Assembly (NCBI GenBank): GCA_003566935.1 | Contig: PXBM01000152.1 | Coordinates: 1-29,719, forward strand | Length of the DNA: 29,719 bases | Direction of reading: 5' to 3' | From: Syntrophomonadaceae bacterium | GTDB taxonomy: Bacteria > Bacillota > Dethiobacteria > DTU022 | In this document: positions 6,496 to 29,719 of the stretch, one piece after another | Layout: each line of letters opens with the position of its first letter | Numbering within the stretch: the stretch's first letter is position 1 | Notes under the pieces: model-generated | What the model was told of the DNA's origin: nothing | Seen by the model: the letters and a program-made list of their open reading frames with translations, nothing else | Database searches by the model: none | Made by a program: the position numbers and the translations under genes

Positions 6496-7524
6496 TTATC
6501 GCTGAACTCTTCCTGATGCATCCCCTTTCATCAGCAGCTCAACTTCAGCTGATGTAATAAGGTTATAATCTCCTGGAATAGTATGCTTCAGACAGGATGA
6601 AGCAGCCGCAAATTCTATAGCATCTTTGTGCTTTTTATCACTGAGAAAACTATAAATCAGACCCGCTCCAAAAGAATCTCCTCCACCGACACGATCTACT
6701 ATCGGGATAATATCGTATCTCTTTGAAATATAAAAATCAGTACCATCATATAAAAGACCGGACCAGCCGTTATGTGAAGCTGAAAAGCTTTCCCGCAGGG
6801 TTATGGCAACATATTTAAAGCCGAACTCTTTCTTTAATTTTTTCGCCACTTCTTTGTAGGATGAACCATCAACTTTGCCTTCTGAAATGTTTGCCGCCTC
6901 AGCTTCGATCCCAAAAACCTTTGCTGCGTCTTCTTCATTAGCAATACATAAATCCACATTTTCAACTAAAGCTGACATAATTTTTTTTGCTTTGTCAGTG
7001 GACCAAAGATTTTTACGGTAATTTAGATCCACGCTAACACTCACACCTGCCTTTTGTGCAGCCCAAACTGCCTCTCTAGTGATAGAAGCAGCATTTTCTC
7101 CAAGAGCCGGTGTTATACCTGTAAAGTGGAACCAAGAAGTATTATTAAATATCTTTTCCCAGTCAAAATCTGAAGGAACTGCTTCTGCTAGAGAAGAGTT
7201 TGCCCTGTCATAGATCACTTTTGAAGGCCGTTGTGCCGAACCGCTTTCGAGGTAATAGATGCCAAGCCTATTGCCACCTTTAGCAACATAGCTGGTATCA
7301 ACTCCGTAACGTTGCAAACTGCCTATTGCTGCCATACCAATTAAACTGTCAGGAACCCTGGTGACATAGAAAGCATTCATATTAAATTGGGCCAGCGATA
7401 CAGCAACATTTGCTTCACTACCGGCGTAGGTTACATCAAAAGCCTGGGCCTGCTGAATACGCTGATGCCCGGGGGTAGAAAGTCTGAGCATTATTTCTCC
7501 GAAAGTCACGACTTTTTTATTCAT
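6496..7524 (-). CDS. kdgK: 2-dehydro-3-deoxygluconokinase (PfkB family)
   Basis: VVTFGEIMLRLS, AGSEANVA, VIYDRANS, DLNYRKNLW, ANEED, ITLRES.SASHNGW, DRVGGGDSFGAG, LKHTIPGD...GRVQR, all typical of KdgK. Confidence 0.9.
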   Translation of the reverse strand: MNKKVVTFGEIMLRLSTPGHQRIQQAQAFDVTYAGSEANVAVSLAQFNMNAFYVTRVPDSLIGMAAIGSLQRYGVDTSYVAKGGNRLGIYYLESGSAQRPSKVIYDRANSSLAEAVPSDFDWEKIFNNTSWFHFTGITPALGENAASITREAVWAAQKAGVSVSVDLNYRKNLWSTDKAKKIMSALVENVDLCIANEEDAAKVFGIEAEAANISEGKVDGSSYKEVAKKLKKEFGFKYVAITLRESFSASHNGWSGLLYDGTDFYISKRYDIIPIVDRVGGGDSFGAGLIYSFLSDKKHKDAIEFAAASSCLKHTIPGDYNLITSAEVELLMKGDASGRVQR

Positions 7525-7560
7525 AAGATAGCTCCTTCCAAATGAAAAATAATAAATTCA

Positions 7561-9597
7561 TTACGAGAACAAACTCCATGTCGCATCTCTACCGGCATGT
7601 TCTATGGTTAAAGTTGACAATGGAAAATCTGCTTTTGAATACGGATTATCGTAGCGGGGATAACCTCCGAGCTCTACTACTTTGCCCTGCTGTCTCAGCG
7701 GTCCCTGCCAGCCAAATTCAAGCAGCCCCTGCGATGGAGAATTGTAAGCAACATTCTGTCCGTTAAATTTTAGAGAAGCACCGGCAATCCTGTCAATGAA
7801 AATATTAAATTCTCCATCGACTTCTCTCCGTCCCATTTCGCAAATCCAGATATTCTTTAAGCCGCTGGCTATGATTTCACAGCCGGCATCATCACCCTCA
7901 GTCTGCCAATAATAGCTGTTTTGCGTGCGCAAGGCAATGTAGCCATCTCCCTTTCTGCCGAAAATCCATTCTTTTTCTTCAACTACTTCATCAAAGCGAT
8001 CCCGGGGAAACCAGGCATGGGTGAAAAATAATTTATTTGTCATGTAAATGCCGGGCATGCGAGAAATTCTATAGACTGCAATCAAAACATTTTTAACCTG
8101 GGCTACCCTCGGCAGGGTCCCCGATCCAACCCAATAACCAGCCGAGCTCTCTTCCTTGCTTCCCGGATGAGTTGTGAAACAAACTGTACTGGGCGACAGG
8201 GTTGCCTGCCAGATATGCTGCTGATCGCCACCATAACCAGCCCGGTAATCCTGGGCAGCACTAAGCATATAATCGGGAGTGCGGTAAGTATAAAGATTAA
8301 CCTCTTCCCTGGCATTCCTGGTGATATCTTTTTCGAAGAGGCGAGCAAAAAGACCCAGCAGGTTAAATGTGCGCAGGAAATCGATCAGTTTCTTTTTCGC
8401 TTTGAACATGTCAAAAAACTGGTTTTCCCACCAACAAAAAGCATCAAACATTCGCATGGTCAGGGCTATTGTTTTTGGGTGAGTGTAAGCTTCCAGGCTG
8501 AGAAAAACCATTCCGCTGTCCAGGTCTTTAAAGTTTAGCCCCCATTTTTCAGCCTCATCAATTCTAATGCCCATGCGCTGAAGATTGATCATTTCAGAGC
8601 GGTTTTGATCTCTGGCGACTTCATAGATTACCGGAGGCAAAGTATACTCAGGACTTAAGGCCAGGGTCACGGCGCTCATATTATCGCTTCCGGAAAAAAT
8701 GCCCATCCCGAATAACAGCTTTGCCGTATCGATAGTAGATTCGACCAGAGCGTTTTTCTTCTCCTTTCCATAGCTTCTCCCGTGAGTTGAAGAGAAAGCA
8801 CCATAAAAATTATTTAAGGCCAGGTCATAGAGAAGTAGGTCAAGAACCATTCTTGCTTTTGATGCTATTTCTTCATCGCGACAAAAATCAACGAGGTTTA
8901 CCAGGGCGGTAATATCTTCATCATAGTAAATATGTGAAAGCCACTCGCTAAAACCGGTTTTATATCTCAATAAAAGCCATTGGAGTATGCGCGGTAGGGC
9001 ATGGTTCATTTTTTCCCTTCCACTCATTTTAGAGTTGCTAAATACTTCATCGGGATAAAGCTGCCCGGCCAGGTATTCATTGGCTAAGAACATAATCTGG
9101 TGATTCTCCGTCCAGTAACACATAGAGTCAATACCCGGTTCATCCGGCCAGTATTTAAAACCAAGCACAGTTTTTTTAGCACCGGCAAGAAGCTCTTCGC
9201 TTATTAACTTACTATCAGGGAACTGGTATAGCAGGCGAATTATCCCAAGCAGAACAAAGTCCGAGCAATCAAAGCGTTTATCTATATATTCAATCGCTCC
9301 TTCAATTGCACCCTCATAAACCGGCCCATTATTTTTATAGAGTCTGGCCAATTCGTAATAATATCCCTTGATAGTCGGAGCAGCAGGGTTGCGCAGGCAG
9401 TGTTCCAGGAAAGCTTCTTTTCTTTTTTCATACTCCTCTTCAAAAGGAAATACCGTATATTCATCCGGACTAGGTTCTGCCGGATAACCAGGTGGAGGAT
9501 TACCCTTTTGGATGACCCTAAAATCGGTTACGCTGGTTGTATGAAAAAAATCATGCTGGTAGACCTGCTCTTCATTTTCATTAGTTTGGCTGTCCAT
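7561..9597 (-). CDS. Uncharacterised 678-aa WTENH-motif protein, no signal peptide; paralog of 9675..11843; possibly an alpha-toroid plus beta-sandwich (heparinase II/III-like) fold
   Basis: Long ORF with RBS and collinear motif identity to the neighbouring gene (FKYW.DEP, WTENHQI, EYLAGQL.PDE.F.N, HGR, HIWQATL). The fold call is inference. Confidence 0.6.
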   Translation of the reverse strand: MDSQTNENEEQVYQHDFFHTTSVTDFRVIQKGNPPPGYPAEPSPDEYTVFPFEEEYEKRKEAFLEHCLRNPAAPTIKGYYYELARLYKNNGPVYEGAIEGAIEYIDKRFDCSDFVLLGIIRLLYQFPDSKLISEELLAGAKKTVLGFKYWPDEPGIDSMCYWTENHQIMFLANEYLAGQLYPDEVFSNSKMSGREKMNHALPRILQWLLLRYKTGFSEWLSHIYYDEDITALVNLVDFCRDEEIASKARMVLDLLLYDLALNNFYGAFSSTHGRSYGKEKKNALVESTIDTAKLLFGMGIFSGSDNMSAVTLALSPEYTLPPVIYEVARDQNRSEMINLQRMGIRIDEAEKWGLNFKDLDSGMVFLSLEAYTHPKTIALTMRMFDAFCWWENQFFDMFKAKKKLIDFLRTFNLLGLFARLFEKDITRNAREEVNLYTYRTPDYMLSAAQDYRAGYGGDQQHIWQATLSPSTVCFTTHPGSKEESSAGYWVGSGTLPRVAQVKNVLIAVYRISRMPGIYMTNKLFFTHAWFPRDRFDEVVEEKEWIFGRKGDGYIALRTQNSYYWQTEGDDAGCEIIASGLKNIWICEMGRREVDGEFNIFIDRIAGASLKFNGQNVAYNSPSQGLLEFGWQGPLRQQGKVVELGGYPRYDNPYSKADFPLSTLTIEHAGRDATWSLFS

Positions 9598-9674
9598 AGA
9601 TCTAAATCGCTCCTTGCCTAAAATCTAAATTATTACGCTCCCCATGTTAATATCTTATGCTTTAGCCTTCTTTA

Positions 9675-11843
9675 CTAGCCTTTAATCACTCTACGATTCT
9701 TTTCAAAATCCAGCTCTAATTCATGTTCGCCTAGGGAAATGGTAAAGACAGTCTGTCCAAAATCTGTTTGACAGTAAGGATTATTAAAGCGGGGGTAATT
9801 TCGCAAAGGAATCTCTTTCCCGTCTAATATAAAGGGCCCTTCCCAGCCAACCTGGTATAAGCCATTACCGGGAGATTCATAATTTACCTTCAACCCGTCT
9901 ACCTCTACCAGGGCCCTGGCGATTGAATTGCTGAATTCCTCAAATGAACCGTCCACACTCTCTCGGCCTAAATGGCAGATCCATACATTTTGCCTTCCCA
10001 GAACAATTACTTCCTGGTCAGCATCAGGACCTTCCGTTTGCCATTCATAGGGCAAGTGTGAGTAAAGGGCCAGGTACCCTTTATTTCTGCGGCCCAGGAT
10101 CCAGCTGCCTTCTCCAGTGGCAGGAAATTCTTTGATCTCATCAAAAGCCCACCTGGGAAAATAGGCATGGGTAAAAGCGAAAAGCCCGGTGTCTTCCGCT
10201 CCAATCCCCTCCAGTAAATTGGGAATGCGATCAATATTGTAAATACTGATAAGCACGTTGCGATGCTGGACTGTTCGGGGGAAACGACCTTGAGAAGCCC
10301 AGTACCCGGGACGTCCCGCTCGAAGAGAGCCGGGATTGGTTACAAACACTACTGCGTAAGGATCCAGGGTAGCCTGCCAAATGTGATGCTGGTATCCTTT
10401 CTCTCCCTTGCGGTAATCCTGGGCACAGGAGAGCATGTAGTCGGGGCTACGGTAAGTTACCTTGTTCACCTGTGATTTTACCATTCCATTGCTATCGGGA
10501 CCCAACCATTCCACTCCCAGCCCCAGCAAACCCAACCTGGAGAGGGTTTGCCCCAGGTCGGCCAGGGGGGCAAAATCCGGATAGTGCCATAGGTCCCATT
10601 TATTGGCAGTATGCACTGTAAGATCTACTACTTTGGGATGGGTAAAAGCGTGCATAGCCCACCAGATAGGCACATCTTCTACATTATCAAAACTAAGGTT
10701 ATATTTTTCGGCCTCTGCTTCATTGACATTAATCGAATGCCGCTCATAATTGGTCATCTCTTCGGGCAAATCCTGACCTATTTTTTCTAAGACAGGTGGC
10801 AGGTTATAGCGCTCACTAGTGGCAAAAGAAACACTGGCAATGTTATCAGTGGATTGAAAGCGGCCCAAGCCCCACAATAGGGCCTGGGTTGTAACCAGGT
10901 TATCCCCGGCAGCGCTCTTGATATGCCGCACAGAGGCCCTCCCGTGAGATGTTCCATAATGGCCATAGAATGAATCGGCTGCCATATCCAGCAGCATTAT
11001 GTCCACCATAATTACAGCTTTTTGGGAAATCTCCTCGTCTTCCGCAAAGTCCACCAGGTTAAGTAAAGCCCCCATCATGTGGGCGTAATATGGGACAGAA
11101 TCCCATTCGGCAAAGCCAGTTCGCGCGCGCCAGTTCATCCATCGTAGAATTTTGGCCCGGGCGTGCTCCATGCGCCACCGCCCAGACTGGTCATTGTTAG
11201 TAAATGTTTCGTCAGGAAAAAGTTGTCCGGCCAGGTACTCGGCAGTGTGAACCAGGATCTGGTGATTTTCCGTCCACAGCTCCATCTTGGAGTCGGTAGG
11301 ATTAGGCTCATCCAGCCAGTACTTGAAATCCAGGAAAGTTTGCCTGATCGATTTTTTCTGGGCAGCAGTCAACAAATCGCCGTCGGCATGCTTGTAATAT
11401 ATACGTATTAAAGTCTGCATGCTGAAATCCGAGGTGTCTTCCCTGGAATTAACCTTGTCCAGCTCTTGCTGCAGCTTTGCCTGGGTCAAAGAAGATCCCA
11501 GTTCCATGCGGCAAAGATCCGCCCGCAAACCATCTACCTCTGCAGGCTCTTCTGCCACCCATTCCAGGTATGCCTGCCGTCTTTCTTCAAGAGATGGCTT
11601 TAAGGGTGTACGGTAAAAGGGAGGATCGCCGGGCGAAGGGCGCGAAGGGACAGGATCGCCTTCCCGAAAAGCGGGCCATTCCGGGCTTACCGCCCTTATT
11701 TCCCTGGCAATAATTCCACCTGCCACCCCGGCAGCAGCCAACCCGCCGCAACCAATGAGAAAAGATCGGCGGGTAATGCCGCTTTCACTTTTAAAGACAG
11801 CACCTTGTAGATTGCCCCCGGCAGGGTTTTTGTCAGTACTCAT
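9675..11843 (-). CDS. Uncharacterised WTENH-motif protein with twin-arginine (Tat) signal; paralog of 7561..9597
   Basis: ITRRSFLIGCGGLAAAGVAGGII matches the S/T-R-R-x-F-L consensus plus a hydrophobic region. The ATG at 11843 has good AGGAG spacing (GTG at 11852 is an alternative). Confidence 0.65.
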   Translation of the reverse strand: MSTDKNPAGGNLQGAVFKSESGITRRSFLIGCGGLAAAGVAGGIIAREIRAVSPEWPAFREGDPVPSRPSPGDPPFYRTPLKPSLEERRQAYLEWVAEEPAEVDGLRADLCRMELGSSLTQAKLQQELDKVNSREDTSDFSMQTLIRIYYKHADGDLLTAAQKKSIRQTFLDFKYWLDEPNPTDSKMELWTENHQILVHTAEYLAGQLFPDETFTNNDQSGRWRMEHARAKILRWMNWRARTGFAEWDSVPYYAHMMGALLNLVDFAEDEEISQKAVIMVDIMLLDMAADSFYGHYGTSHGRASVRHIKSAAGDNLVTTQALLWGLGRFQSTDNIASVSFATSERYNLPPVLEKIGQDLPEEMTNYERHSINVNEAEAEKYNLSFDNVEDVPIWWAMHAFTHPKVVDLTVHTANKWDLWHYPDFAPLADLGQTLSRLGLLGLGVEWLGPDSNGMVKSQVNKVTYRSPDYMLSCAQDYRKGEKGYQHHIWQATLDPYAVVFVTNPGSLRAGRPGYWASQGRFPRTVQHRNVLISIYNIDRIPNLLEGIGAEDTGLFAFTHAYFPRWAFDEIKEFPATGEGSWILGRRNKGYLALYSHLPYEWQTEGPDADQEVIVLGRQNVWICHLGRESVDGSFEEFSNSIARALVEVDGLKVNYESPGNGLYQVGWEGPFILDGKEIPLRNYPRFNNPYCQTDFGQTVFTISLGEHELELDFEKNRRVIKG

Positions 11844-11887
11844 CGCTGTCACTCCTCACTTATTTCTCCTTTAAAATTAGAGGCTGC

Positions 11888-12661
11888 TTAAGAAACCATA
11901 GCCTCAATTTTTTTCATAAAGGAAGCAATATCTTTACCGTATTCAGGAGAACCGTCCACGGTCAGGTAACCCAGTTTCATTGCTTCAACATTATCGATTT
12001 GCCCGGTTAGAACCTGGAAAGCCCCTTCATTACCGGAAAAAAGCATGTGCACAAATGGTTTACGCCTAGTGTATAAACCTTTGCCCGCCTTGGTGCGACC
12101 TTTTTTTATACGCAAGTAAGCTGCAGGACCATCAGGCGCTACCGACCACTGGAAAATACGATCAGGCATGGGACCGGTAAATATTTTCATCTCTTCGTCT
12201 CCGGCTTTATTTAGCTGAGATAGGGCTACCGAGATAAAGTAGAGCAGCATTTTTACTTTCAATGCTCTCTTTTGCGGATCTTTTGGTTTTTTTGAAGGCA
12301 GTAAAAGGGTCAGCCCGAGCATCAGGGGCAGGAATCCCGCCAGGGTGGTGAAATTTTTCAGCGCCCCCCTGATTTTTGGCAGGGCAATTTTCCCGGTCAT
12401 CAGGGCATTAAATGAGGCGGCATTTTTGAAGCAGAAGTCTATATCGGGATTATCGTGCCTGCCGCTGATATATTCAACCTTCCCATCATTAATGAATATA
12501 TGGCAGGCCAGATCCGGATCATTTTCCACCTGGAACTGGACAATTCTCTTCCAGCCCTTATATTTCTCAGCTAATTTCGGATTTTCTTCCACCAGGACCC
12601 TGGTCAGGGGGAGAGCTGCATTCATCAGTAACCTGGCTACAAGCTTTTCTTTATCAGCCAT
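11888..12661 (-). CDS. Tandem SCP2 (sterol carrier protein 2)-like lipid-binding domain protein
   Basis: Two repeats of an SCP2-like pattern: HIFINDGKVEYISG...PDIDF...FNALMTG, and AYLRIKKG...AFQVLTGQIDNVEAMKLGYLTVDG. GAGGAGG RBS. Confidence 0.55.
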   Translation of the reverse strand: MADKEKLVARLLMNAALPLTRVLVEENPKLAEKYKGWKRIVQFQVENDPDLACHIFINDGKVEYISGRHDNPDIDFCFKNAASFNALMTGKIALPKIRGALKNFTTLAGFLPLMLGLTLLLPSKKPKDPQKRALKVKMLLYFISVALSQLNKAGDEEMKIFTGPMPDRIFQWSVAPDGPAAYLRIKKGRTKAGKGLYTRRKPFVHMLFSGNEGAFQVLTGQIDNVEAMKLGYLTVDGSPEYGKDIASFMKKIEAMVS

Positions 12662-12682: not shown

Positions 12683-13702
12683 TTATAGTTCATCTTCCCA
12701 GTCATCATCTTCTTCAACTTCTTTACCCAGCATCTCCGCCACCGCTTCGGTAATCCCTTCTGCATCAATCTTGTAAAGATTATAGAGGTCATCCGTTTGG
12801 CCTACAATGGCAAAAACATCAGGAATACCCAACCTTTTTAACCGACACGATTTACCCTCCTCGGTAATTACCTCGGCCACAGCACTGCCAAGGCCTCCTA
12901 TAACGCTATGGTTTTCTACAGTAATAATTTTTCGCGTGTCGTTAACCGCTTCAATAATCGCTTCACGGTCAATTGGTTTGATGGTATGCATGTTGAGCAC
13001 CCGCACCTCAATGCCCTGGCTTTCTTTCAGTTCTTTAGCCGCCTCCAAAGCTTGCAGCACGCAGGGGCCGCAGGCTATAACAGTTATATCACTGCCCTCG
13101 TGCATGGTTACAGCTTTGCCTATTTCAAAATCATAATTTTCTTTTTCATAAACAGTTTGCTCAAAACCACGGCCAATACGCATGTAGAGGGGGCCGGGAC
13201 GGTCCAGCGAAGCACGTACAGCATTGGCCGTTTCTATACCATCGGCCGGCACCACAACTGTCATATTGGCAAATGAACGCATCACTGCCAGATCTTCGGT
13301 GCAGTGATGAGTAGATCCGGCAGTTCCGAAAGATAGTCCCGAGTGTGTGGCAATGATTTTGCAATCAAGGTTCTGGTAACAGATGTCCGTACGAACTTGT
13401 TCACCAGCCCGCAGTGAAGCAAAGACAGCGAAGGTAGAAACAAAGGGTACGTACCCGGCCAGGGCTAACCCGGCTGCGATACCAAAGAGGTTTTGTTCGG
13501 CAATGCCCACATTAAAAAACCTTTCGGGATGCTTTTCTCCAAACTTGCCAATCTTAGTCGATTTAGCCAGGTCGGCCGTTAATGCGACTAGATCTTTTCT
13601 TTCTTCACCCAGCTGGGCCAGTACATGCCCATAAATTTCCGCCGGAGTCATATGGTCTGTATCATACACGCTATATGTGAGGCCTGATTCTTCACTCATC
13701 AT
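12683..13702 (-). CDS. Split transketolase, C-terminal (pyrimidine-binding plus C-terminal) subunit
   Basis: TADLAKST, ERFFNVGIAEQN, STFAVF, THSGLSFGTAGSTHH, LNMHTIKPID, ENHSVIGGLGSAVAE. AAGGAGG RBS. Confidence 0.93.
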   Translation of the reverse strand: MMSEESGLTYSVYDTDHMTPAEIYGHVLAQLGEERKDLVALTADLAKSTKIGKFGEKHPERFFNVGIAEQNLFGIAAGLALAGYVPFVSTFAVFASLRAGEQVRTDICYQNLDCKIIATHSGLSFGTAGSTHHCTEDLAVMRSFANMTVVVPADGIETANAVRASLDRPGPLYMRIGRGFEQTVYEKENYDFEIGKAVTMHEGSDITVIACGPCVLQALEAAKELKESQGIEVRVLNMHTIKPIDREAIIEAVNDTRKIITVENHSVIGGLGSAVAEVITEEGKSCRLKRLGIPDVFAIVGQTDDLYNLYKIDAEGITEAVAEMLGKEVEEDDDWEDEL

Positions 13703-15886: not shown

Positions 15887-16012
15887 AATATATACCTCCC
15901 TCCAAACCATTCTTAAATTCTTCAACCCAATTGCTGCAACCTTAAATTAACAAATCAGAATTAGAACATCGTTGTAATAATATGTTTATGGCAGCCCATT
16001 TTTATTACATCT

Positions 16013-16786: not shown

Positions 16787-16994
16787 TCCTTTTTCACCCC
16801 ATTTTCTATCTTGAAGAAAATACAAACAACTCTTTATGACAATTCGCTCAAAACAACTTGCTGAAGAAAGATATAAACAAGCAAATGAAAAATAATTTTA
16901 TTTAGCACAACCATTTTTACTGTTTCATCATAAGGCTGCTGCAATGTGTCAATAAATTGATGATCAGCTCAATGTGCCATGATAATAAATTGGA

Positions 16995-18098: not shown

Positions 18099-18156
18099 AA
18101 AGGCCATCTCCTAACTTTTGCATCAAGGAAACCATCTCCCTGACACTCTTGATCTG

Positions 18157-21948: not shown

Positions 21949-23781
21949 TTATTCAAACTGCTTCACCGGTTCCCGTGGTTCCAATTCCGCCTGCCCCGAT
22001 ATCTCTTTTATGACAATGTAGCGCTGCCATTGGGGATCCCGCCGTGGTAAGGGGGTATTGTCAGTCGGGCAGGTAAAGCGCAGGTGGGGACCCCTGCTTT
22101 CATCCCTCAACTGGGCAGACCTGAGCACTACTTCAGCCAGTGTGGTCATGGCAGGCAACTCCACGGCCTGAACCAGTCCTGAAGAATCCATTTCGAATGG
22201 CATTTGCCTCAGCTCTTCCAGGAGAACCAGTCCTTCCTTAAGCCCTTCGGCAGTCCGGACCACTCCGGCACAGCTGCTCATTATTTTCTGCAGCCGGGAG
22301 AGATATTCGCTGGCAGTAAGGCCTCTTGACTTATAAAGATCGTCAACCTTCTCAAGAATAATGTCCACTTCACTTTTTGAAATAGCCCTTGCTTCGGTCT
22401 GCTTTGCCCTTAAAGCAGCCTGGGCCCCGGTTATTTTACCGAACACCTGGCCATCAAGAAGGGCATTTCCGCCTGGCCGGTTGGCCCCATGCTGCCCTCC
22501 GGCGCACTCGCCTACAGCGTATAAACCTCTTACCGCAGTTTCTCCCCGGTCGTTAATCTTAATCCCACCCTGGAAGTGCTGTGCACAGACAGCCACTTCT
22601 ACCATTTCGCCACTGGTTATATCTATTCCGTGCTTTTCAAGCCACGAAACAGAATCGGGATTAATCTCCTGCAGGCGTTTTAGCGGGCTTTCCTCACGTT
22701 CCTGCAAACTAATTTCATTTTTTATCTCTCCCCTGTATCGTTCTTTAAGTGCACTCTCTACTTGCTGGTATGTAAACCCTCTCGGGTTTTTGGAATAATC
22801 GAGATAAACCTTTCTGCCGTTTTTCCGTTCTTTATAAACAGCAATATCTATAATGCGGGTATCGTGTTCGTAGCTAACTGGCCAGGTAGCGCCCTTGCGG
22901 AAAATGAGGCCTGGTAAATCTGAAGGGTCTATCCCTTCAGGTAAGTAGTCACTGATAAATTCCCGGCCTTGATCATTAACAAATCTCGGGAAGGCCCGCA
23001 TCATGCTGCCAGAGCAATTTAACCTGGTTTTCACAGAAGCTATCCCAAACTGAATAAACTCCATATTTACAAGTTCCGCACCGGCCCTGTAAGCTAGAAT
23101 TGCGCCACTGCCGCTATTGCCTCTGGGGAATACATTGTCTGCATAAATAAGTCCTCCGCCACCACTGGCCATAATTACGGATGAAGCGTTAACCACCAAA
23201 AGTTCTTCCCCCTGGCGACTTTCAAGCAGGCCAATTGCTCCCCTGATGCCTTCATTGTCTGAAATCAGCTCAATGATTGAGCAGTTTTCAAGTAACCCTA
23301 TATTGTTTCTTTTAAACTCTTCAACCAGGGCTTGTTCTATATGCACAGCTGTGTATGGGCCTGTGTAGCAGGCCCTGGCATAGTGAGATCCATCTGTTAC
23401 AAACTGATCTGTTTTTCCATCACATGTAACAAAAGGAACACCCAGTTTTAGCAAATATTCAAAAGCCTCACAGGCATTGGCTGCCAGAATAGCCGCCAGG
23501 TTTGCATCTGATACACGGCCCCCTATTTCGTAAATATCCCTGGCATGGTAAAACCATGAATCTTCACAAAGAGGTTCAGTATGCGGCAGGGTAGCATGAA
23601 AAGCCATCCGATCCGAACAGGCAAGGGCAGTCACCCCGCTCTGGCCAAGCTTTCCTTTTGTCGCCAGGTATATAGAAGTTTGATCATCCTGTCCACGTGC
23701 CGCCAGGGCAGCCCGAATACCACCGCCACCACCTCCGACAACGAGGATATCACATGTGATTTCATGAATATTTAACTTCAT
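21949..23781 (-). CDS. FAD-binding oxidoreductase of the SdhA/FrdA/NadB (FAD_binding_2) superfamily, stand-alone
   Basis: DILVVGGGGGG, VIMASGGGG, GAELVNMEFIQF, QHFQGGI, GLYAVGECAGGQHGANRPGGNALLDGQVFG, RDESRGPHLR. Confidence 0.85.
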   Translation of the reverse strand: MKLNIHEITCDILVVGGGGGGIRAALAARGQDDQTSIYLATKGKLGQSGVTALACSDRMAFHATLPHTEPLCEDSWFYHARDIYEIGGRVSDANLAAILAANACEAFEYLLKLGVPFVTCDGKTDQFVTDGSHYARACYTGPYTAVHIEQALVEEFKRNNIGLLENCSIIELISDNEGIRGAIGLLESRQGEELLVVNASSVIMASGGGGLIYADNVFPRGNSGSGAILAYRAGAELVNMEFIQFGIASVKTRLNCSGSMMRAFPRFVNDQGREFISDYLPEGIDPSDLPGLIFRKGATWPVSYEHDTRIIDIAVYKERKNGRKVYLDYSKNPRGFTYQQVESALKERYRGEIKNEISLQEREESPLKRLQEINPDSVSWLEKHGIDITSGEMVEVAVCAQHFQGGIKINDRGETAVRGLYAVGECAGGQHGANRPGGNALLDGQVFGKITGAQAALRAKQTEARAISKSEVDIILEKVDDLYKSRGLTASEYLSRLQKIMSSCAGVVRTAEGLKEGLVLLEELRQMPFEMDSSGLVQAVELPAMTTLAEVVLRSAQLRDESRGPHLRFTCPTDNTPLPRRDPQWQRYIVIKEISGQAELEPREPVKQFE

Positions 23782-23784: not shown

Positions 23785-24882
23785 TTAATCCTCCATCTTA
23801 ATAACTGCTTTAAGGGCCTCTTTTTCTTCCATAGCTTTGAGAGCAGCTGTAGCATTTTCAAGTTTGAAGCGATGACTGATCATTTCCCTGAAAAGAATAG
23901 GATTCTGCAGAACAAGGCTGTAAGCCATATAGGTATGACGGATGTCGCTAACCCATACCCCCTGGATATGCAGGTTACGTTTGACAATATGATTGAAACA
24001 GTCCAGGGCAGCCCGGCCCCTTGGTTCTCCAAATCCTGCCATCATATATACTCCACCCGGGCGAACCAGGGTGACCCCTTCTTCAACTACTTCCGGCAGC
24101 CCTACTGCCTCAAAAGCATAATCAACACCCCTGCCACTGGTAGCTTCCATTATAATTTGTCGGCGTTCTTCGCTGCTGTTTGCGTGACGATCCAGCAAAA
24201 TATCTGCACCGAAGCGCCTGCACATTTCCAACCTTGATGCAGTTCCGCCGATTACGATTATCTTGCCTGCCCCAAGGGCCCTGGCAAAGGCCACCGCAAA
24301 AAGACCCAGTGGCCCGGGACCCTGAACCAGTACGCTATCACCAATTGAGGGAGATACCATATCAAAAGCATGGGCAGCCGTAGAACCTGAACAGGTTGCA
24401 GCCACCAGCACCGAGTGTTCTATTTCTCCTGGGACAGGGAAAAGAGTTGTTCCGGCATCAAGCAGAATATGTTCAGCATATGCTCCTCGCAGGTGCGGGG
24501 CAGACTCAGAAGACCTGTTTATACCGTAAACCAGTCGATTCTGGCATAGTGAAGGCTCTTTAACAATGGCACAATAGTAGCATTCACCACAGGTTAAACC
24601 GCGGTGCCAGAGCACGGCGTCGCCCTCTTTGATCCTGTTACCCATAATATCGTGACGCTCTCCTGTAAGAGCAGTTACCCTGCCTACACCTTCGTGGCCC
24701 AGGATGATAGGTAACGGTGTCCGGGGATCTTCCCCTTTCCACATATGGACATCAGACCCACAGACCCCGGCTGCAGTAACCTTAACCAGCACTTCCTTTT
24801 CGCCTGGATCTGGAAGGAGAAATTCTCTCATCTTTAGAGGTTTATTAAATTCTTCCAGGACCATCGCCCGGCTTTTCCCCAT
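23785..24882 (-). CDS. Zinc-dependent alcohol/polyol dehydrogenase (MDR superfamily, resembling Thermotoga TM0436-type)
   Basis: GVCGSDVH, ILGHEGVG, structural Zn motif CGECYYC...C, GPGPLG. From memory, GEDPRTPLPIILGHEG and VYGINR...PHLRG resemble the TM0436-like subfamily. Confidence 0.88.
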   Translation of the reverse strand: MGKSRAMVLEEFNKPLKMREFLLPDPGEKEVLVKVTAAGVCGSDVHMWKGEDPRTPLPIILGHEGVGRVTALTGERHDIMGNRIKEGDAVLWHRGLTCGECYYCAIVKEPSLCQNRLVYGINRSSESAPHLRGAYAEHILLDAGTTLFPVPGEIEHSVLVAATCSGSTAAHAFDMVSPSIGDSVLVQGPGPLGLFAVAFARALGAGKIIVIGGTASRLEMCRRFGADILLDRHANSSEERRQIIMEATSGRGVDYAFEAVGLPEVVEEGVTLVRPGGVYMMAGFGEPRGRAALDCFNHIVKRNLHIQGVWVSDIRHTYMAYSLVLQNPILFREMISHRFKLENATAALKAMEEKEALKAVIKMED

Positions 24883-24919: not shown

Positions 24920-25765
24920 TCAAGCCAGCCTGGTGCGAATATATTCCAGGTTTGCTTCTGACCCCTCTAACAGGGTCTGCTCTCCAGTAAGGGTATGAGT
25001 TTCGATACTGATCCCTCCGCTGTATTTATCAGACTGCAGAGCTTTTAATTGACCATCCCAGTTGATTGCCCCATTTCCCATTGTAACTATGTCGCTGCCT
25101 GATATGTCCTTGGCATGAATCAATTCGATAAAAGGCTTTACTTGATTGTATCCAGCGGGGAAAGGCACCTCTTCGTGGTTGTATGCGTTAGCAGGATCCC
25201 ATATGGCCCGAAAATGTTTGTTATTGATATCTTGCAGCAGCCTTGCCGCCTCGCTACCGGAAACGGCATAACTCATATCTTCGTTTTCCAGCAGCAGAAT
25301 TTTACCTCTCTCCGCAACCATCTCCAGAGGAAGTGCAAAAGCTTCTATAAGTGTTTCCCAAACTTCATCCGGCTCTTTTTCTCTAAAAAAAGCAAAGGTC
25401 CTGATAAAAGGCGCATCAAACCTATCGGCCAGATCGATGCTGTGTTTGAGAATACGCAGATGTTCAGCATACTGGCTGTCATCCCTATTAACCAAAGAGC
25501 GGTTTTCTTTTAATCGCTTTACATCATCCCCGTTAAGTAGGGCCCTGAAAAGAGTAGGACATATAGTTTTAACCGGTAGACCTGAAGCTTTAACCAGTTC
25601 ATAAGTTTTATTCACTTTGTCTCCGGATAGCTCGCATATGTTTTCACCTGCCACCCAAAGATCTCTTAAGTCAATGTAATCAAGTTCTTTTTTTTTGGCC
25701 CAGCTAAGAGCTTCTTCCAGGTTAATGGATATCTCGTCTGTTACAGCACCTAATGAAATAGGCAT
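24920..25765 (-). CDS. Sugar phosphate isomerase/epimerase (xylose-isomerase-like TIM barrel, AP_endonuc_2 family)
   Basis: TDEIS start and a metal-ligand set E (LLENE), D (WDPAN), H (IHAKD), E (SIETH). Confidence 0.82.
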   Translation of the reverse strand: MPISLGAVTDEISINLEEALSWAKKKELDYIDLRDLWVAGENICELSGDKVNKTYELVKASGLPVKTICPTLFRALLNGDDVKRLKENRSLVNRDDSQYAEHLRILKHSIDLADRFDAPFIRTFAFFREKEPDEVWETLIEAFALPLEMVAERGKILLLENEDMSYAVSGSEAARLLQDINNKHFRAIWDPANAYNHEEVPFPAGYNQVKPFIELIHAKDISGSDIVTMGNGAINWDGQLKALQSDKYSGGISIETHTLTGEQTLLEGSEANLEYIRTRLA

Positions 25766-25771: not shown

Positions 25772-27277
25772 TCAACTCCCATTAGTTTCATCTTCGCCGG
25801 TTTCTGAAACAACTTCGGTTGGAATATAGTTGGGATTATAGAGCAGGCGTATTAAACTCATTGTTGTTTCATCTTCTCCTACCGGTTCATCCTCTTTACG
25901 CCTCTCCAGGATAGATTGAATCTGTCCGTGAACTGCACAGGTCAGATTATAATGACGGGCAAAACCAAAAAGTGAAATTAAAAGCAGCAGGATGGGAGCT
26001 AAAGATACAAGAAGGCGAACAGCGAGAATGAAACTATCAGGCTGTACAGTTGCAATTCCCTCCTGGGGAGCTGTATAACCTGAAAACTGGATAACCCACC
26101 CGACAATCATCAGGGCAATAGCTGTTGAAAGCTTGCGAAGGAAAGTCATAACACCGGCATAGGTGCCCTGGCGCCTTTTACCTGTAGCCAACTGATCAAC
26201 ATCAAGAACATCGGGCAGCATGGACCATGGGCTGAAGGCTGCACCCGACGTGCCTAATCCAATCAAGCCGGCTATGACAAATATTACCCAGATTGGAGTC
26301 CCTTCACCAACAATAGCAAGAACAGGTACAAGCAAAATCCAGATGATAGTGCCTATATAGTATGATGTTTTCTTGCCGTATCTATTGGCGATCGGCACAT
26401 ATATAAGAAGAGAAAGTGTTTGTACAAGCAGCAAAATACCAAAAACCAGGGAAATGTATATTTCTTCTCCCCGGCCAATTACATAAGTCATATAATACAT
26501 TAAAACTGCGGATATAACATCTATAGCCAGAAAGGTAAGCAAATAGATGCCGGTAAGGGTTCTGAAACAGCGGTTTGTCATCGTATCTTTGACATCTTTT
26601 ATTAGATCGAGTTTTGTTTTCACATGTTGGTGTGGTTGCTCAAAACTGACAAGGAAGGTGCCAACCAGTGGCAGGGCAAAAATAAGTCCGAAAGTAATTC
26701 CCATAATTGTATAGCCAGTAGAGGTCTGATCAAAGCTGCCAACAATTAACATGGGAACAGCAGCAGATGCCAGGGAAGAAAGGTTTGAAAAAGCCATCCG
26801 AAAACCGGTTAATGAACTTCTTTCATTATAACTCGGGGTAAGTTCCGGAATAAGGGCATTATAGGGAACCATAACCATAGTCAGGGTTGTATTAAATAAT
26901 ATATTCATTACCAGGAAAAAAAGAAACAGGCCGAATTGAGTTTCAAATGCAGGGGTGCTCCAGAGCAGGGTAAAAGTTATAATGATGGGCAGGATTCCGG
27001 CCAGAAAGTACACCCGGCGCCTGCCAAAACGGCTCCTGGTCTGATCAGTAATAAAGCCCATCAGGGGATCTGAGATAGCATCCCATCCCTTGCCCAGCAT
27101 TAAAACCAGGCCTGCCAGAACTGGATTTAGTCCGGCCACTTCAGTCAGGAAAAACAGATAATAAAAGCCGATTAGAATTAATGCTCCGCCACCAAAAATA
27201 TCGCCGGCGCCGTAAAAAAACTTGGTTGTAAATGGTAGTTTCCCATCAGCATTTACTTTAAAAGCATTCACTTTCAT
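25772..27277 (-). CDS. MFS transporter, glycoside-pentoside-hexuronide (GPH, MelB/UidB-like) cation symporter
   Basis: KFFYGAGD, WDAISDPLMG...DQTRSRFGRRR, VPYNALIPELT...ER; about 12 hydrophobic segments; cation-site Asp residues retained. Confidence 0.9.
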   Translation of the reverse strand: MKVNAFKVNADGKLPFTTKFFYGAGDIFGGGALILIGFYYLFFLTEVAGLNPVLAGLVLMLGKGWDAISDPLMGFITDQTRSRFGRRRVYFLAGILPIIITFTLLWSTPAFETQFGLFLFFLVMNILFNTTLTMVMVPYNALIPELTPSYNERSSLTGFRMAFSNLSSLASAAVPMLIVGSFDQTSTGYTIMGITFGLIFALPLVGTFLVSFEQPHQHVKTKLDLIKDVKDTMTNRCFRTLTGIYLLTFLAIDVISAVLMYYMTYVIGRGEEIYISLVFGILLLVQTLSLLIYVPIANRYGKKTSYYIGTIIWILLVPVLAIVGEGTPIWVIFVIAGLIGLGTSGAAFSPWSMLPDVLDVDQLATGKRRQGTYAGVMTFLRKLSTAIALMIVGWVIQFSGYTAPQEGIATVQPDSFILAVRLLVSLAPILLLLISLFGFARHYNLTCAVHGQIQSILERRKEDEPVGEDETTMSLIRLLYNPNYIPTEVVSETGEDETNGS

Positions 27278-27314: not shown

Positions 27315-28295
27315 CTAATCTTGACGCAATATTGGCAGAGTTTTACCTTTCCCTGCCGCTTCGAGCCCGGTTAAAATGATATTTAAAGCTTGCAATCCTA
27401 CAAGTCCGTCAGTTTCAGGTTTTCGGCGACTTTCAATACAGCGGCAGAACTCGGTAAGTTCTTCTTTGACAGAATGAATACCTTCTACAATCTCACTAAT
27501 TGCCTTTCCATCAGCTCCTGTTACAGTTAGCTTCTCCTCACCATCAACCCTGATTTCCCCTTTCGTTCCCCGAGCATAAATAGAAAAAAGCTCAGGTGCT
27601 GTTGTATAGTCGGCAGTTATGGAACCAACAACTCCATTTTTAAATTTAAGCAGCATTCGCCCTCCGGCTGGAACCTGGGAACCATTTGGGCATTCCATAA
27701 TTTCTGCAGAGACTCTTTCTATTGGCCCGAACAGATAAGGCAGGTTATCCGCATGATGAATGCCAAGCTGCATCATTGGTCCCCCGGGGCAGGATAAAGC
27801 GCAATTACGCCACGATTCACCGCAAATTTCTTCAAGATTATAATAAGAAAACGTAGCTTCAACAGTTTTTATTTCACCGGCCGCCTTATTGTCAATAAGC
27901 TTTTTCATCTTACGCACGGCAGGATAGCGGCGGGAGTTATGGCCAACCATTAATATTCGCTTTTTTCCTTCCGCCAATCTAATCATTTCCAGGGCTTCAT
28001 CCGGGTTTGCTGTAATTGGTTTTTCTACAAAAATATCTTTGCCGGCGTTTACTAATTTAACCGCGAGAGGATAATGGGTGGTATTCCCGGTTACAATTAA
28101 AACACCATTAATAGATTTGTCATCCAATATCTCCTGCATGGAGGAAGCAGGCGGCACTTCAAAGAGATCGCTGAAAAAGCTGCATCTTTCAGGATCTTCA
28201 TCATATACAGCAGTTACTGAAACTCCCTCAATATCACGCAAAAAACTGAATAGTAACATTGCCCAGCGGCCGCAGCCAATTAATGCAAGCTTCAT
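27315..28295 (-). CDS. Gfo/Idh/MocA family NAD(P)-dependent oxidoreductase
   Basis: LALIGCGRW, H...A......GKDIFVEKP, VGHNSR, MQLGIHHAD. Real start is the ATG at 28295 after AAGGAG; the ORF track extends into the upstream gene. Confidence 0.9.
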   Translation of the reverse strand: MKLALIGCGRWAMLLFSFLRDIEGVSVTAVYDEDPERCSFFSDLFEVPPASSMQEILDDKSINGVLIVTGNTTHYPLAVKLVNAGKDIFVEKPITANPDEALEMIRLAEGKKRILMVGHNSRRYPAVRKMKKLIDNKAAGEIKTVEATFSYYNLEEICGESWRNCALSCPGGPMMQLGIHHADNLPYLFGPIERVSAEIMECPNGSQVPAGGRMLLKFKNGVVGSITADYTTAPELFSIYARGTKGEIRVDGEEKLTVTGADGKAISEIVEGIHSVKEELTEFCRCIESRRKPETDGLVGLQALNIILTGLEAAGKGKTLPILRQD

Positions 28296-28321: not shown

Positions 28322-29476
28322 TTAGATCCCTGTCATTTTTATCGCTGACTGAGGGCACAGTTCAGCACAAAGCCCGCAGCCGACACAATCCTGATGCACG
28401 ATATATGCATTTTCCCCGCCCGTAAAAGCGGACTGGTGCAGGCAAACTTTTTCACAGATGCCGCAATTAGTACAGCTATCTTCATCTATCCGGGCAACTC
28501 TTGCCCTGGTGCGATTTACCTGGTCAGGGGGAATAACCTTGGAACAAATTGCTCCCCTAAACTGCTCAATTTCCGAGTACCCTTTTCCAACCATGAAGTC
28601 ATCCAGCTTTTTCAAGTAAGCTTTTATCACCTTGAAGCCTTCCATGTAAATAGAGGTACATATTTGAACGCTTGATGCACCTGACAGGATATACTTAATA
28701 ATATCTTCGCCACAGCAAACCCCTCCACTACCGCTGATCGGCAAATCAACCTGTGGTGCAGCTGCTGAAATCCATCGCAATGCATAATGAATAGCCCAGG
28801 GGCCACCGTGACCGGCAATACCGCCATGCATTATAGGTGCTTCTTTTTCCAGGTCAATATCAAGGCCGGTGAAACGGCTGAACATTACCAGGCCGTCAGC
28901 ACCCGCTTTATCAAGACTGACAGCAGTCAAGAGAGGATCGGTCAACTGGGGAGTAAATTTCGCACAAACCGGAATGGAAACTTTATCTTTAACAAGTTTA
29001 ACAGTTTCAATCGCAGCTGCGGTCCAGGAATCTTTTCCCTCCATCATAATTTTGCTAAATGGACAAGAACGGTTTATCTCCAGGGCTTCTGCTCCGGCTT
29101 CCTCCAGGCAGGATGCATAATCTGCCCAAGCCTGATCGCTAACACAGTTAATACTGGCAATGACCGGGATAGAAACCTCTTTTACCGTCCGGTGAACTTC
29201 ATCAGCGTAACGCTCCAGGTCCCAGGGGCTGGCCTGTTCAAAACTATAAAAAGTTGAAGAGTGCATAGGACCCCCTTTTCGCCTAATTAATGAATAGCAG
29301 GGTGTGGGATTTTTGCGGGTATACTCTTCTTCAAATAATGTTTTCATCACCACTGCAGCAGCGCCCATTTCTTCAGCCTTCTTGATTAATTCCAGGTGCT
29401 CAGAGGTACCTGCCGAGGCTACCACAAGGGGGTTTTTTATTTTAAGGGATCCATACATGGTTTCCGTATCTGGCAT
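28322..29476 (-). CDS. Dihydroorotate/dihydropyrimidine dehydrogenase-like FMN protein with C-terminal 2x[4Fe-4S] (PreA-like architecture)
   Basis: KNPLVVASAG, AAAVVMKT, PVIASI, EINRSCP, PVCAKFTP, ISGSGG, GASSVQICT; C-terminal CTNCGICEKVC and CVGCGLCAELCP. Confidence 0.85.
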   Translation of the reverse strand: MPDTETMYGSLKIKNPLVVASAGTSEHLELIKKAEEMGAAAVVMKTLFEEEYTRKNPTPCYSLIRRKGGPMHSSTFYSFEQASPWDLERYADEVHRTVKEVSIPVIASINCVSDQAWADYASCLEEAGAEALEINRSCPFSKIMMEGKDSWTAAAIETVKLVKDKVSIPVCAKFTPQLTDPLLTAVSLDKAGADGLVMFSRFTGLDIDLEKEAPIMHGGIAGHGGPWAIHYALRWISAAAPQVDLPISGSGGVCCGEDIIKYILSGASSVQICTSIYMEGFKVIKAYLKKLDDFMVGKGYSEIEQFRGAICSKVIPPDQVNRTRARVARIDEDSCTNCGICEKVCLHQSAFTGGENAYIVHQDCVGCGLCAELCPQSAIKMTGI

Positions 29477-29512
29477 AAAACCACTCTCCTAAATAGTAAG
29501 GATGCAATCGAA

Positions 29513-29719
29513 TTATGATTCTGTTTTTGTTTTATCTCCTACAGACTGGCGGATTATTAGCTCAATCGGTACATTTTCAATTACAGGCTTATAATTTCTT
29601 TTTGAATTAATAAGCTTTATTACTCTTTCTGCGGCCCTGACTCCGATCTGGTAAAAAGATTGGGCAATTGTTGTTAAGGGTGGATCCACCAGTGCAGACA
29701 TCTCAATATTGTCAAAACC
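29513..29719 (-). CDS. LacI family transcriptional regulator, C-terminal part; start lies beyond the window
   Basis: In-frame GFDNIEMSALVDPPLTTIAQSFYQIGVRAAERVI...ELIIRQS, the classic LacI sugar-binding domain end. Confidence 0.88.
   Translation of the reverse strand, partial: GFDNIEMSALVDPPLTTIAQSFYQIGVRAAERVIKLINSKRNYKPVIENVPIELIIRQSVGDKTKTES

Follow-up and report, generated by a model that had tools for sequence, protein, structure and literature searches.

The contig PXBM01000152.1 of a Syntrophomonadaceae bacterium (assembly GCA_003566935.1) carries a long island of co-directional genes headed by a LacI-family regulator, in which enzymes of sugar-acid type stand next to enzymes of lipid and amine type. 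The window analysed here is the whole stretch of 29,719 nucleotides, which is the entire contig (C88) of a metagenome-assembled genome (MAG; G000) of 1.49 Mb and 64% completeness. The reading favoured here, with a probability of roughly 45%, is that the island is a mosaic of three separately inherited modules, in which a route for the catabolism of an acidic glycan to 2-keto-3-deoxy-gluconate (KDG) recruited an N-deacylase and an amino-lipid cassette. Genes are numbered g1 to g18, running upstream from the 3' end of the minus-strand series. Module A is composed of a GPH symporter, a Gfo/Idh/MocA oxidoreductase, flavoenzymes, a xylose-isomerase-like TIM barrel, a zinc-dependent alcohol dehydrogenase (ADH), g2 and g3, a KDG kinase and the aldolase Eda. 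Module B is composed of g11 and its PF25653 partner g10, the ceramidase-superfamily amidase g12 and the saccharopine-dehydrogenase-like g9. Module C is a cassette of an SCP2-like protein, a FumI-like aminotransferase, a split transketolase (TK) and a second SCP2-like protein.

Distribution of the modules

The original prediction, made from the letters of this DNA, described an upstream half of glycoside uptake and redox enzymes and a downstream half of lipid- and amine-type genes, and both chemical themes are real. It explained the whole set by one substrate with a sugar head and a lipid amine tail, and proposed a gene-neighbourhood analysis to see which genes travel together. This analysis resolves the three sub-modules A, B and C, each of which is found apart from the others, and thus bears out the mosaic content while speaking against a single travelling unit. 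The three are adjacent only in this lineage, that is, in the island and in two loci (L002 and L003) from two ENA metagenome assemblies. A and B occur without C in loci L001 and L016, and B occurs without A or C in loci of genome G050 and in L014.

The autonomy of module C is clearest in metagenome contigs, which were scanned with the family of its SCP2-like protein g4 and gave 80 loci, 23 of them with at least 5 kb on each side and flanks totalling 579 kb. Adjacent TK genes are present in every locus whose contig reaches that far, an SCP2-like gene always comes after the TK in related loci, the aminotransferase is present in 33 of the 80, and g8 holds the first cassette position in 28 of them, as well as in L025, L027 and the genomes G011, G019, G046 and G050. 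No homologue of g1-g3, g9-g12 or g15-g18 was found in any of these 80 loci and their flanks, and the sole other island matches near module C are weak paralogues of g13 and g14 (28-29% identity) in three loci. In L025 and L027 (Dethiobacteria, Hydrogenedentes), and likewise in genomes of the same family, the cassette is on its own, and L026, from a deltaproteobacterial genome, has a modified form that includes two distant aminotransferases and lacks a g8 homologue. MurT on one side and SurA/HisG on the other flank the cassette in a same-family genome (G011, locus L122) and in L025 of the Dethiobacteria. At this site in G000 (contig C198, positions 1-3817) the flanking genes are separated by some 0.8 kb that contain no cassette, and the island cassette is thus the only copy found.

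Modules A and B are joined in L001, a locus of a Bacillota MAG with the order LacI, ADH, FAD flavoprotein, OYE-type enzyme, Gfo, two g3-type genes, g10, g11, GPH and TIM barrel, in which there is no g9, no g12 and no cassette; L016 has Gfo, a g10/g11 fusion and GPH. Module B is represented on a contig of G050 (Syntrophomonadaceae) by g9, a penicillin amidase, g12, g11, g10 and an EEP phosphoesterase, and in a Promethearchaeota MAG (JALGVJ010000039.1; L014:7195-12394) by a compact operon of GPH, a g12-like amidase (43%) and a g11-g10 fusion (51%). The sequences of this Asgard locus suggest that module B has moved between domains. Two Chloroflexota loci (L006 and L126) combine OYE, ThuA, Gfo, GPH and g3, one of them with a g2-type gene too, and other g3 homologues, in relatives and in other phyla, are solitary, with an uninformative context.

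As a side observation on the G050 block (contig C13; L011:4880-18434, L012:3748-13956), its acylase of the penicillin-amidase family has 795 aa; the block is preceded by genes for two MtaA-like methyltransferases, a corrinoid protein and an Fe-S protein and is followed downstream by an open frame exceeding 3,400 aa.

A search of 61 genomes, namely G000 and 60 relatives, found g3 in 5, g11 in 3 and the cassette in 8. The original prediction had named as the outcome that would count against it that the two halves never co-occur elsewhere. At the level of the locus this is nearly what is seen, the cassette being autonomous in 80 of 80; at the level of the genome it is not, as all five g3 genomes (G000 and four relatives) also carry the cassette. 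In the four relatives modules A and C are on separate contigs, and two of these genomes, G046 and G050, carry modules A, B and C, again on different contigs. The co-occurring genomes represent only about three independent lineages.

Layout, extent and conservation of the island

The list of open reading frames (ORFs) holds an unbroken minus-strand series from 6496 to 29476 with 18 complete genes, which is completed by the end of a regulatory gene:

29513..29719, minus strand: LacI-family regulator, C-terminal 68 codons, cut by the contig end (open frame; Peripla_BP_3 E 1.3e-10, the C-terminal end of a LacI-type ligand domain)

The series thus amounts to 19 co-directional genes, in agreement with the 19 consecutive minus-strand genes and the LacI head first described, provided that the last is counted by its 3' end. 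Full-length LacI genes with helix-turn-helix (PF00356) and effector domains occupy the equivalent position in L001, L002 and L003. Gene order is identical in L002 and L003, with 87-100% protein and about 92% nucleotide identity, and the run is therefore not due to chance. When the shorter starts of the orthologous loci are used (g7 at 15886, g8 at 16786, g17 at 28295), the three large gaps at 9598-9674, 15887-16012 and 16787-16994 stand as claimed, and the remaining intergenic gaps measure 3-50 bp. At least six genes had been said to lack a recognisable function, and seven indeed lack a confident one: g2, g3 and g11 have no Pfam or NCBIfam match, g4 and g8 have weak SCP2 matches, g10 has PF25653 alone and g12 is a marginal ceramidase. 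The part of g2 present in L003 (20987-22037) shows 100% protein identity to window positions 7561-9597, its neighbours showing 87-97%, a contrast in the sequences that hints at recent recombination inside the island.

DNA synteny with same-genus genomes ends at about 5715, directly past a DUF362 gene. None of g1, g3, g4 and g11 was found in any of the 7 same-genus genomes searched, and g12 gave there one weak match alone, at 27% identity. The end of synteny and the failure to find g1 in the congeners place the beginning of the island at the convergent Eda gene (5732-6487). The extent of about 23 kb from position 6496 that was originally proposed holds for the minus-strand series, and the left boundary has to be moved to 5732. 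Judged by these comparisons, the island is an acquired accessory region of at least 24 kb. Its right-hand boundary was not located, as the contig ends in LacI and the flanks of the congeners match no other contig of G000.

The island is apparently one LacI-controlled operon, whose genes would be transcribed together. Scans for promoters and terminators gave counts inside shuffle expectation, which neither support nor refute a single transcript. The terminator scan found no minus-strand terminator in the three large gaps, and no obvious LacI-type palindrome was seen in the gaps.

Predicted lyase-fold proteins

The acidic-glycan part of the favoured reading would depend on four proteins of modules A and B.

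7561..9597, minus strand: g2, cytoplasmic paralogue of g3 (blastp against g3: 40% identity, E 3e-165; no signal sequence)
9675..11852, minus strand: g3, predicted exported or membrane-anchored alpha-toroid plus beta-sandwich protein, lyase-like, with a twin-arginine motif (AlphaFold2 model, pLDDT 90, and Foldseek)
18157..18522, minus strand: g10, 121-aa PF25653 domain protein, partner of g11 (PF25653 E 1.2e-12)
18541..20577, minus strand: g11, predicted rare polysaccharide-lyase-fold protein of beta-sandwich, alpha-toroid and beta-sandwich (AlphaFold2 model, pLDDT 92, and Foldseek)

The g11 family is small, with 33 homologues among 5.8 billion proteins. The top Foldseek matches of its model are the glycosaminoglycan (GAG) lyases 8khv and 8khw, BtPL33HA, the alginate lyases Atu3025 and Alg17c, heparinase III and dermatan sulfate (DS)-epimerase, with E down to 6e-10, probability 1.0 and TM about 0.5 at about 10% identity; the alignments to 8khv, 3a0o, 8r6z and 4ojz cover more than 600 columns. 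The model thus has the architecture of toroid and antiparallel beta-sandwich that defines the class of polysaccharide lyase (PL) families PL8/12/15/17/21/33/35. For the g3 model the same kind of families comes out on top, with weaker scores: its best matches are PL17, PL15, PL8, PL33 and PL12 lyases, at E 1.6e-5 and TM 0.2-0.3. A g10 homologue adjoins or is fused to every close g11 homologue examined (fused in P0006, P0008, P0012, L014 and L016), and because they are always adjacent or fused, g10 and g11 can be regarded as one functional unit.

The g3 family has at least 987 members, all unnamed and without a Pfam domain, and its W-T-E-N-H-Q motif is invariant or nearly so. A hydrophobic segment opens most of the 40 N-termini inspected and an RR motif is present in 27 of 120; since g3-family N-termini are hydrophobic or carry RR, and g2 has neither, g3 is expected to act outside the cell. 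A g2-type gene is paired with a g3-type gene in L006, from Chloroflexi, too. The alignments of both the g11 and the g3 families have columns of invariant Asn, His, Tyr and Arg, among them the adjacent N196-H197 of g3, which are candidates for an Asn/His/Tyr(/Arg) catalytic set of lyase type in the toroid cleft. Two further ideas were tried and rejected: the L-I-G-C of g3 as a lipoprotein lipobox, as its Cys lies five residues past the RR motif and ahead of the hydrophobic segment, and the g11 and g3 families as one family, as they are unrelated by hhalign profile comparison.

Distant g11 homologues (30-35% identity) are located in polysaccharide biosynthesis loci with glycosyltransferases, sulfotransferases and Wzy, and so again point to a glycan substrate. 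In L004:10001-17052 a homologue of about 33% identity accompanies genes for the synthesis of 3'-phosphoadenosine 5'-phosphosulfate (sulfate adenylyltransferase/adenosine 5'-phosphosulfate kinase), GT4 glycosyltransferases and two sulfotransferases, and in L005:7730-12250 another, also of about 33%, accompanies Wzy, a flippase and GT4 enzymes.

Sugar-acid, uptake and redox genes

The remaining genes of module A occupy the two ends of the island.

5732..6487, plus strand: aldolase for 2-keto-3-deoxy-6-phosphogluconate (KDPG)/2-keto-4-hydroxyglutarate (KHG), Eda, convergent with g1, at the left end of the island (PF01081 E 1.4e-45; NCBIfam PRK06552 275.6 bits, cut-off 238)
6496..7524, minus strand: g1, PfkB-family kinase, probably for KDG or 2-keto-3-deoxy-galactonate (KDGal) (PfkB E 1.3e-32)
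21949..23781, minus strand: g13, SdhA/NadB-type FAD flavoprotein without partner subunits (PF00890 and PF02910; all NCBIfam scores far below cut-offs)
23785..24882, minus strand: g14, Zn-dependent alcohol/polyol dehydrogenase (PF08240 and PF00107; NCBIfam matches unspecific)
24920..25765, minus strand: g15, xylose-isomerase-like TIM barrel, a keto-sugar isomerase, epimerase or eliminase (PF01261 E 2.9e-24)
25772..27277, minus strand: g16, GPH-family glycoside/uronide:cation symporter (PF13347 E 4e-88; TIGR00792 240.9 bits, cut-off 231)
27315..28295, minus strand: g17, Gfo/Idh/MocA NAD(P) sugar oxidoreductase (PF01408 and PF22725)
28322..29476, minus strand: g18, PreA-like FMN (DHO_dh) enzyme with two 4Fe-4S motifs (PF01180 and Fer4 families; PRK07565 241 bits and PreA 204 bits, both below cut-off)

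In the pair of KDG kinase and KDPG aldolase, the aldolase clears its curated cut-off and the kinase stays below its own: the best NCBIfam matches of g1 are the kinase half of an aldolase/kinase fusion, at 550 bits (cut-off 700), and a KDG/KDGal kinase, at 263 bits (cut-off 440). The TIM barrel g15 has no PDB or NCBIfam match. Parts of this set recur elsewhere, as the g13-g14 pair is also located behind LacI in L001, a GPH gene of g16 type adjoins g10/g11 in L001, L014 and L016, and a g17-type gene recurs with g16 and lyase-like genes in L001, L006, L016 and L126. The corresponding clusters in L001, L006 and L126 harbor an Oxidored_FMN (OYE-type) gene and no DHO_dh gene, and the OYE gene is absent from the window.

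Such a combination of enzymes would also be expected of a 3-keto-glycoside or cyclitol route for neutral glycosides, in which no uronates take part. The Gfo enzyme would then oxidise, the TIM barrel eliminate or isomerise and a flavin enzyme perform ene-reduction, while the toroid proteins would be hydrolases, phosphorylases or epimerases and KDG would arise from an inositol-like branch. This alternative, which appears distinctly improbable, draws on the two Chloroflexota loci, where the g3 family is accompanied by ThuA, Gfo/Idh/MocA, an OYE-type flavoenzyme and GPH; enzymes of ThuAB and Gfo type make 3-keto-disaccharides (PMC8121099). Weak matches of g14 and g17 to inosose/inositol dehydrogenases and of g1 to IolC point the same way, as does the Foldseek list for the toroid domain of g11, which also holds GH88, cellobiose 2-epimerase and phosphorylases. 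However, lyases head the structural matches of both the g3 and the g11 model and share their complete architecture of two or three domains, g1 resembles KDG/KDGal kinases most closely and not IolC, and the island has no IolD/IolB, UxaA/UxaB or DUF1080-type 3-keto-glycoside hydrolase.

The amidase g12 and its neighbours

Apart from g10 and g11, module B consists of two genes.

16995..18107, minus strand: g9, saccharopine-dehydrogenase-like NAD(P) oxidoreductase (PF03435 and PF16653)
20581..21930, minus strand: g12, short zinc amidase of the neutral-ceramidase superfamily (PF04734 38.3 bits, cut-off 32.1)

The PF04734 match spans just the last 80 or so positions of the profile. The T-H-T-H-x-x-P of g12 (the HxH zinc motif) and its C-terminal Tyr-rich segment align with the ceramidases 4wgk and 2zws, which are weak PDB matches (E ~1e-4). 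With 449 aa against 646-688 aa for neutral ceramidases, g12 does not have the full-length ceramidase architecture, and neither a match to Ceramidase_alk_C (the C-terminal Ig-like domain) nor a signal peptide was found. It adjoins g11 in the bacterial locus of G050 as well as in the Asgard-archaeon MAG. In G050 a g9 orthologue of 71% identity precedes the penicillin-amidase gene by 76 bp, both being on one strand, and the orthologues of g12 and g11 come next.

The aminotransferase-transketolase cassette

Module C lies between g3 and g9.

11888..12661, minus strand: g4, SCP2-like putative carrier, 257 aa (SCP2 E 5.6e-7)
12683..13702, minus strand: g5, split TK, Pyr and C-terminal domains (PF02779/PF02780; 282 bits to the Carboxydothermus hydrogenoformans split TK 6yaj)
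13723..14565, minus strand: g6, split TK, thiamine diphosphate (ThDP)-binding N-terminal part (PF00456 E 1.3e-45; always adjoins g5 in related loci)
14609..15886, minus strand: g7, class-III aminotransferase of FumI (aminopentol aminotransferase) type (PF00202; best PDB match 6hbs, FumI, 351 bits, E 6.8e-104)
16013..16786, minus strand: g8, second SCP2-like putative carrier, paralogue of g4 at about 25% identity (SCP2 E 1.9e-4; blastp against g4 E 2e-13)

The aminotransferase g7 is, by sequence, closest to FumI by far, since its next best PDB relative, glutamate-1-semialdehyde (GSA) aminomutase, scores 162 bits and all others score no higher. Transketolase and transaminase reactions are both reversible. 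FumI catalyses the transfer to pyruvate of the amino group at C2 of hydrolysed fumonisin B1, which is a C20 aminopentol resembling sphinganine (PMC3136697). The TK pair has all the ThDP-binding, Pyr and C-terminal domains (E 1e-31 to 1e-45), with NCBIfam scores below the equivalog cut-offs, and departs from the canonical sugar-phosphate acceptor site. The canonical G-E-D-G-x-S-H-Q is G-T-A-G-S-T-H-H in g5 and G-[PQT]-A-G-[ST]-T-H-H in the family as a whole. Among 24 TK family members, all motif variants listed have Ala in place of the Asp and Pro, Gln or Thr in place of the Glu. The arginine of the A-T-R motif is also gone in g5 and is replaced in most family members. In the transketolases of E. 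coli and yeast the acceptor is bound through its alpha-hydroxyl by that Asp and through its phosphate by the Arg, so that the loss of both would make the pocket suited to a non-phosphorylated aldehyde without a 2-hydroxyl group. From the sequences of these enzymes, module C probably handles sphingosine-like lipids. No literature was found on a cluster of transketolase, aminotransferase and SCP2 or on transketolase-based degradation of sphingosine.

The SCP2-like assignment is closer to its limit, with 30.3 bits for g4 and 22.2 bits for g8 against a cut-off of 21.3 (Pfam PF02036). Residues 23-76 and 214-250 of the g4 profile align, weakly (E 0.018), to one SCP2-like PDB chain of about 116 aa, and because the two segments align to one chain, the SCP2 fold of g4 is taken to be split by an insertion of about 135 aa. 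A double SCP2 in g4 and g8 was also considered and was not borne out, the profile aligning as one fold with an insertion. The g4 family has 222 homologues of tightly fixed length.

Beside the cassette, 4-5 kb downstream, a gene pair of HGD-D (2-hydroxyacyl-CoA dehydratase) type was noticed in L025:14900-17403, L026:15377-17750 and L122:14155-16683, followed in L026 by an aldehyde:ferredoxin oxidoreductase. The pair is possibly tied to the cassette in function, but L025 and L122 are syntenic relatives.

The features of g7, the TK and g12 are also those that one amphipathic substrate would call for, namely a molecule that resembles an acidic glycosphingolipid, for example a glycuronosyl-ceramide or a lipid of glycosylinositol phosphoceramide (GIPC) type, degraded by the whole island. 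The lyases would split off the uronate head towards KDG, g12 would free the fatty acid and the cassette would dismantle the sphingoid base without phosphorylation. Every theme needed sits in one conserved operon: g7 is FumI-like, the TK lacks the Asp that binds the alpha-hydroxyl, and g12 keeps the ceramidase zinc motif and lies beside the lyase-fold g11 in three distant lineages, in one of which, that of G050, a penicillin-type acylase and an EEP phosphoesterase, of the sphingomyelinase class, are added. The co-occurrence of g3 and cassette in five of five genomes, and of all three modules in G046 and G050, fits as well. Against this, module C is never beside any gene of A or B in the 80 metagenome loci or in relatives, A and B exist without g12 and without C, and the genomes that co-occur reduce to some three lineages. 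GPH carriers, moreover, mostly move hydrophilic glycosides, and g12 is a truncated and very distant relative of the ceramidases. The single substrate first proposed has therefore the two themes and the genome-level co-occurrence on its side and the separation of the modules at the locus level against it, and it is considered unlikely, not the most likely reading.

At the opposite end, module C may be a passenger in a sugar-only operon, with no link in function between the two halves. It would then be an amino-lipid cassette with a housekeeping or biosynthetic task (making, for example, sphingoid-type bases from a fatty aldehyde and a C2 unit). The reversibility of its reactions would permit this, and in the same family and in Dethiobacteria the cassette has housekeeping genes (CBS, MurT, SurA, HisG) as neighbours and neither a transporter nor a regulator, as an autonomous unit that extends across many phyla. 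The largest gap of the island (16787-16994) falls exactly at the upstream junction of the cassette and, without a terminator, leaves room for a promoter of its own. The downstream junction to g3, by contrast, measures just 35 bp, the cassette has been kept at the same place in the diverged L002 and L003 (87-97% identity), a ceramidase-like amidase is encoded 3 kb upstream of it, and with the conserved MurT site empty in G000 the island copy is the sole one found. A mere passenger is accordingly given a low probability.

Proposed route

The mosaic reading, in which acidic-glycan catabolism recruited the amidase and the cassette, can be put as a sequence of steps; the reactions, the substrates and the direction in which the cassette works are those that we infer from the folds and motifs described above. 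The exported or anchored lyase-like g3 would cut a polymer outside the cell, and the GPH symporter g16 would bring the fragments in, where the cytoplasmic lyase-like g2 and the g10/g11 unit would release a 4,5-unsaturated uronate. Its conversion to KDG would fall to g15, as the isomerase, and to g14 and g17, as reductases or dehydrogenases, with the flavoenzymes g13 and g18 acting possibly as ene-reductases or electron sinks. KDG would be phosphorylated by g1, and the product split by Eda into pyruvate and glyceraldehyde-3-phosphate. The zinc amidase g12, travelling with g11, would take an N-acyl group off the imported fragment. In the cassette, the FumI-type g7 would turn a long-chain 2-amino-1,3-diol, a sphingoid-type base, into a 1,3-dihydroxy-2-ketone, which the TK with its de-polarised acceptor pocket would cleave into a fatty aldehyde and a transferable C2 unit, one SCP2-like carrier serving each enzyme pair. 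The cassette would have been recruited behind g9, next to A and B, in this lineage, the largest gap of the island marking the junction. N-acylated or lipid-bearing acidic glycoconjugates from envelopes or detrital material could thus be used, and the modules need not share one molecule.

Several points weigh against this scheme. By sequence (Pfam, NCBIfam and PDB), g2, g3 and g11 belong to no described PL family and have no Pfam lyase domain; g2 has no match in any of the three databases, and among the lyase-like proteins no PDB sequence match falls below E 0.3. The predicted fold is shared by epimerases and some glycoside hydrolases, and the matches of the g3 model are weak (TM 0.2-0.3). No genes of KduI/KduD type are present. 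In L001 there is no KDG kinase or aldolase within 10 kb, so that it is the adjacency in the present lineage, together with a DHDPS-type gene in L006, that provides the link to KDG. From its GPH transporter, the island would be expected to import something hydrophilic, a poor fit to a lipid substrate for g12, and the housekeeping-like site of the cassette beside MurT in relatives would also fit a biosynthetic role. The roles given to g9, g13, g14, g15, g17 and g18 are guesses.

Comparison with known systems

The closest parallels are the PL-based uronate loci, both those for alginate (PL15/PL17 with DEH reductase, KdgK and Eda) and those for GAGs (PL8/PL12/PL33/PL35). They share with the island, as predicted here, enzymes of toroid plus beta-sandwich, one extracellular and the others cytoplasmic, a GPH-type importer, an exit through KDG kinase and KDPG aldolase, and a LacI-type repressor; the oligogalacturonide utilisation system likewise uses a GPH carrier, TogT. 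The island differs in having no sequence membership in a PL family and no KduI/KduD, DehR or GH88/GH105 genes, and in adding the flavoenzymes g13 and g18 as well as the amidase and the amino-lipid cassette in the same operon. The 3-keto-glycoside pathways (rhizobial ThuAB; BT2156-2160 of Bacteroides thetaiotaomicron) also combine a Gfo/Idh/MocA enzyme, a xylose-isomerase-like TIM barrel and a glycoside importer, and ThuA accompanies the g3 family in the Chloroflexota loci; the window has neither ThuA nor a DUF1080 hydrolase, and has lyase-fold proteins and the KDG exit instead.

On the lipid side, the fumonisin cluster of Sphingopyxis sp. MTA144, with the esterase FumD and FumI, offers the nearest relative of g7 (351 bits), whereas the aminotransferase of the island is locked in a cassette with a split TK and two SCP2-like proteins, in anaerobes of many phyla, and has no FumD-type esterase. 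The C. hydrogenoformans TK (6yaj) is also a two-gene enzyme with all ThDP and Pyr domains, from which the island enzyme (282 bits) is set apart by the change of the acceptor-site Glu-Asp to [PQT]-Ala, by the loss of the A-T-R Arg in most members and by the SCP2-like gene that always follows. Other catabolic routes that depend on a transketolase are the sulfo-TK and apiose pathways. The neutral ceramidases human ASAH2 (4wgk) and Pseudomonas aeruginosa CerN (2zws) align with g12 over the HxH and the C-terminal Tyr-rich segment of the active site, and differ from it in size (some 650-690 aa against 449), in the C-terminal Ig-like domain and in the signal peptide that g12 lacks, at E ~1e-4. The sphingosine-response genes sphBCD of P. 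aeruginosa share the theme of bacterial handling of sphingoid bases; no periplasmic oxidase or cytochrome gene of sphB or sphC type is present in the island.

Significance

To our knowledge, next to nothing has been established on how bacteria, anaerobes in particular, consume sphingoid bases and acidic glycolipids. The product of sphingosine metabolism has yet to be identified even in Pseudomonas (PMC11398299). LacI-controlled operons leading from a glycan to KDG are an already known kind. What is new is the lyase-fold families outside any PL family, the partnership of g11 and g12 across domains of life, and their joining with an undescribed cassette of aminotransferase, transketolase and carrier, which is the most original element of the island. 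The island supplies several candidates for study. There are two or three new lyase-fold families, one of which comprises about 1,000 known proteins, all of them unannotated; a short ceramidase-type amidase accompanies one of these families even in an Asgard archaeon; and the aminotransferase-transketolase-carrier cassette is widespread. The map of the modules shows which genes to express together and warns against treating the whole 24 kb as one pathway. If the single-substrate alternative were true, the island would encode a complete, undescribed anaerobic route for acidic glycosphingolipids.

Sequences outside the island

Left of the island, at window positions 3072-3301, lies an internally deleted remnant of a DUF362/4Fe-4S gene, whose intact copy is at 4539-5703. 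The remnant, 1.4-2.4 kb upstream of that copy, joins the first 54 nt (94% identical) to the last 175 nt or so (74-86%). At 3273-3304 lies a motif of some 30 nt that has copies of 97% identity on contigs C153, C194 and C206 of G000, and of 91-97% on two contigs of the same-genus genome G001; by sequence comparison, it is a small dispersed repeat.

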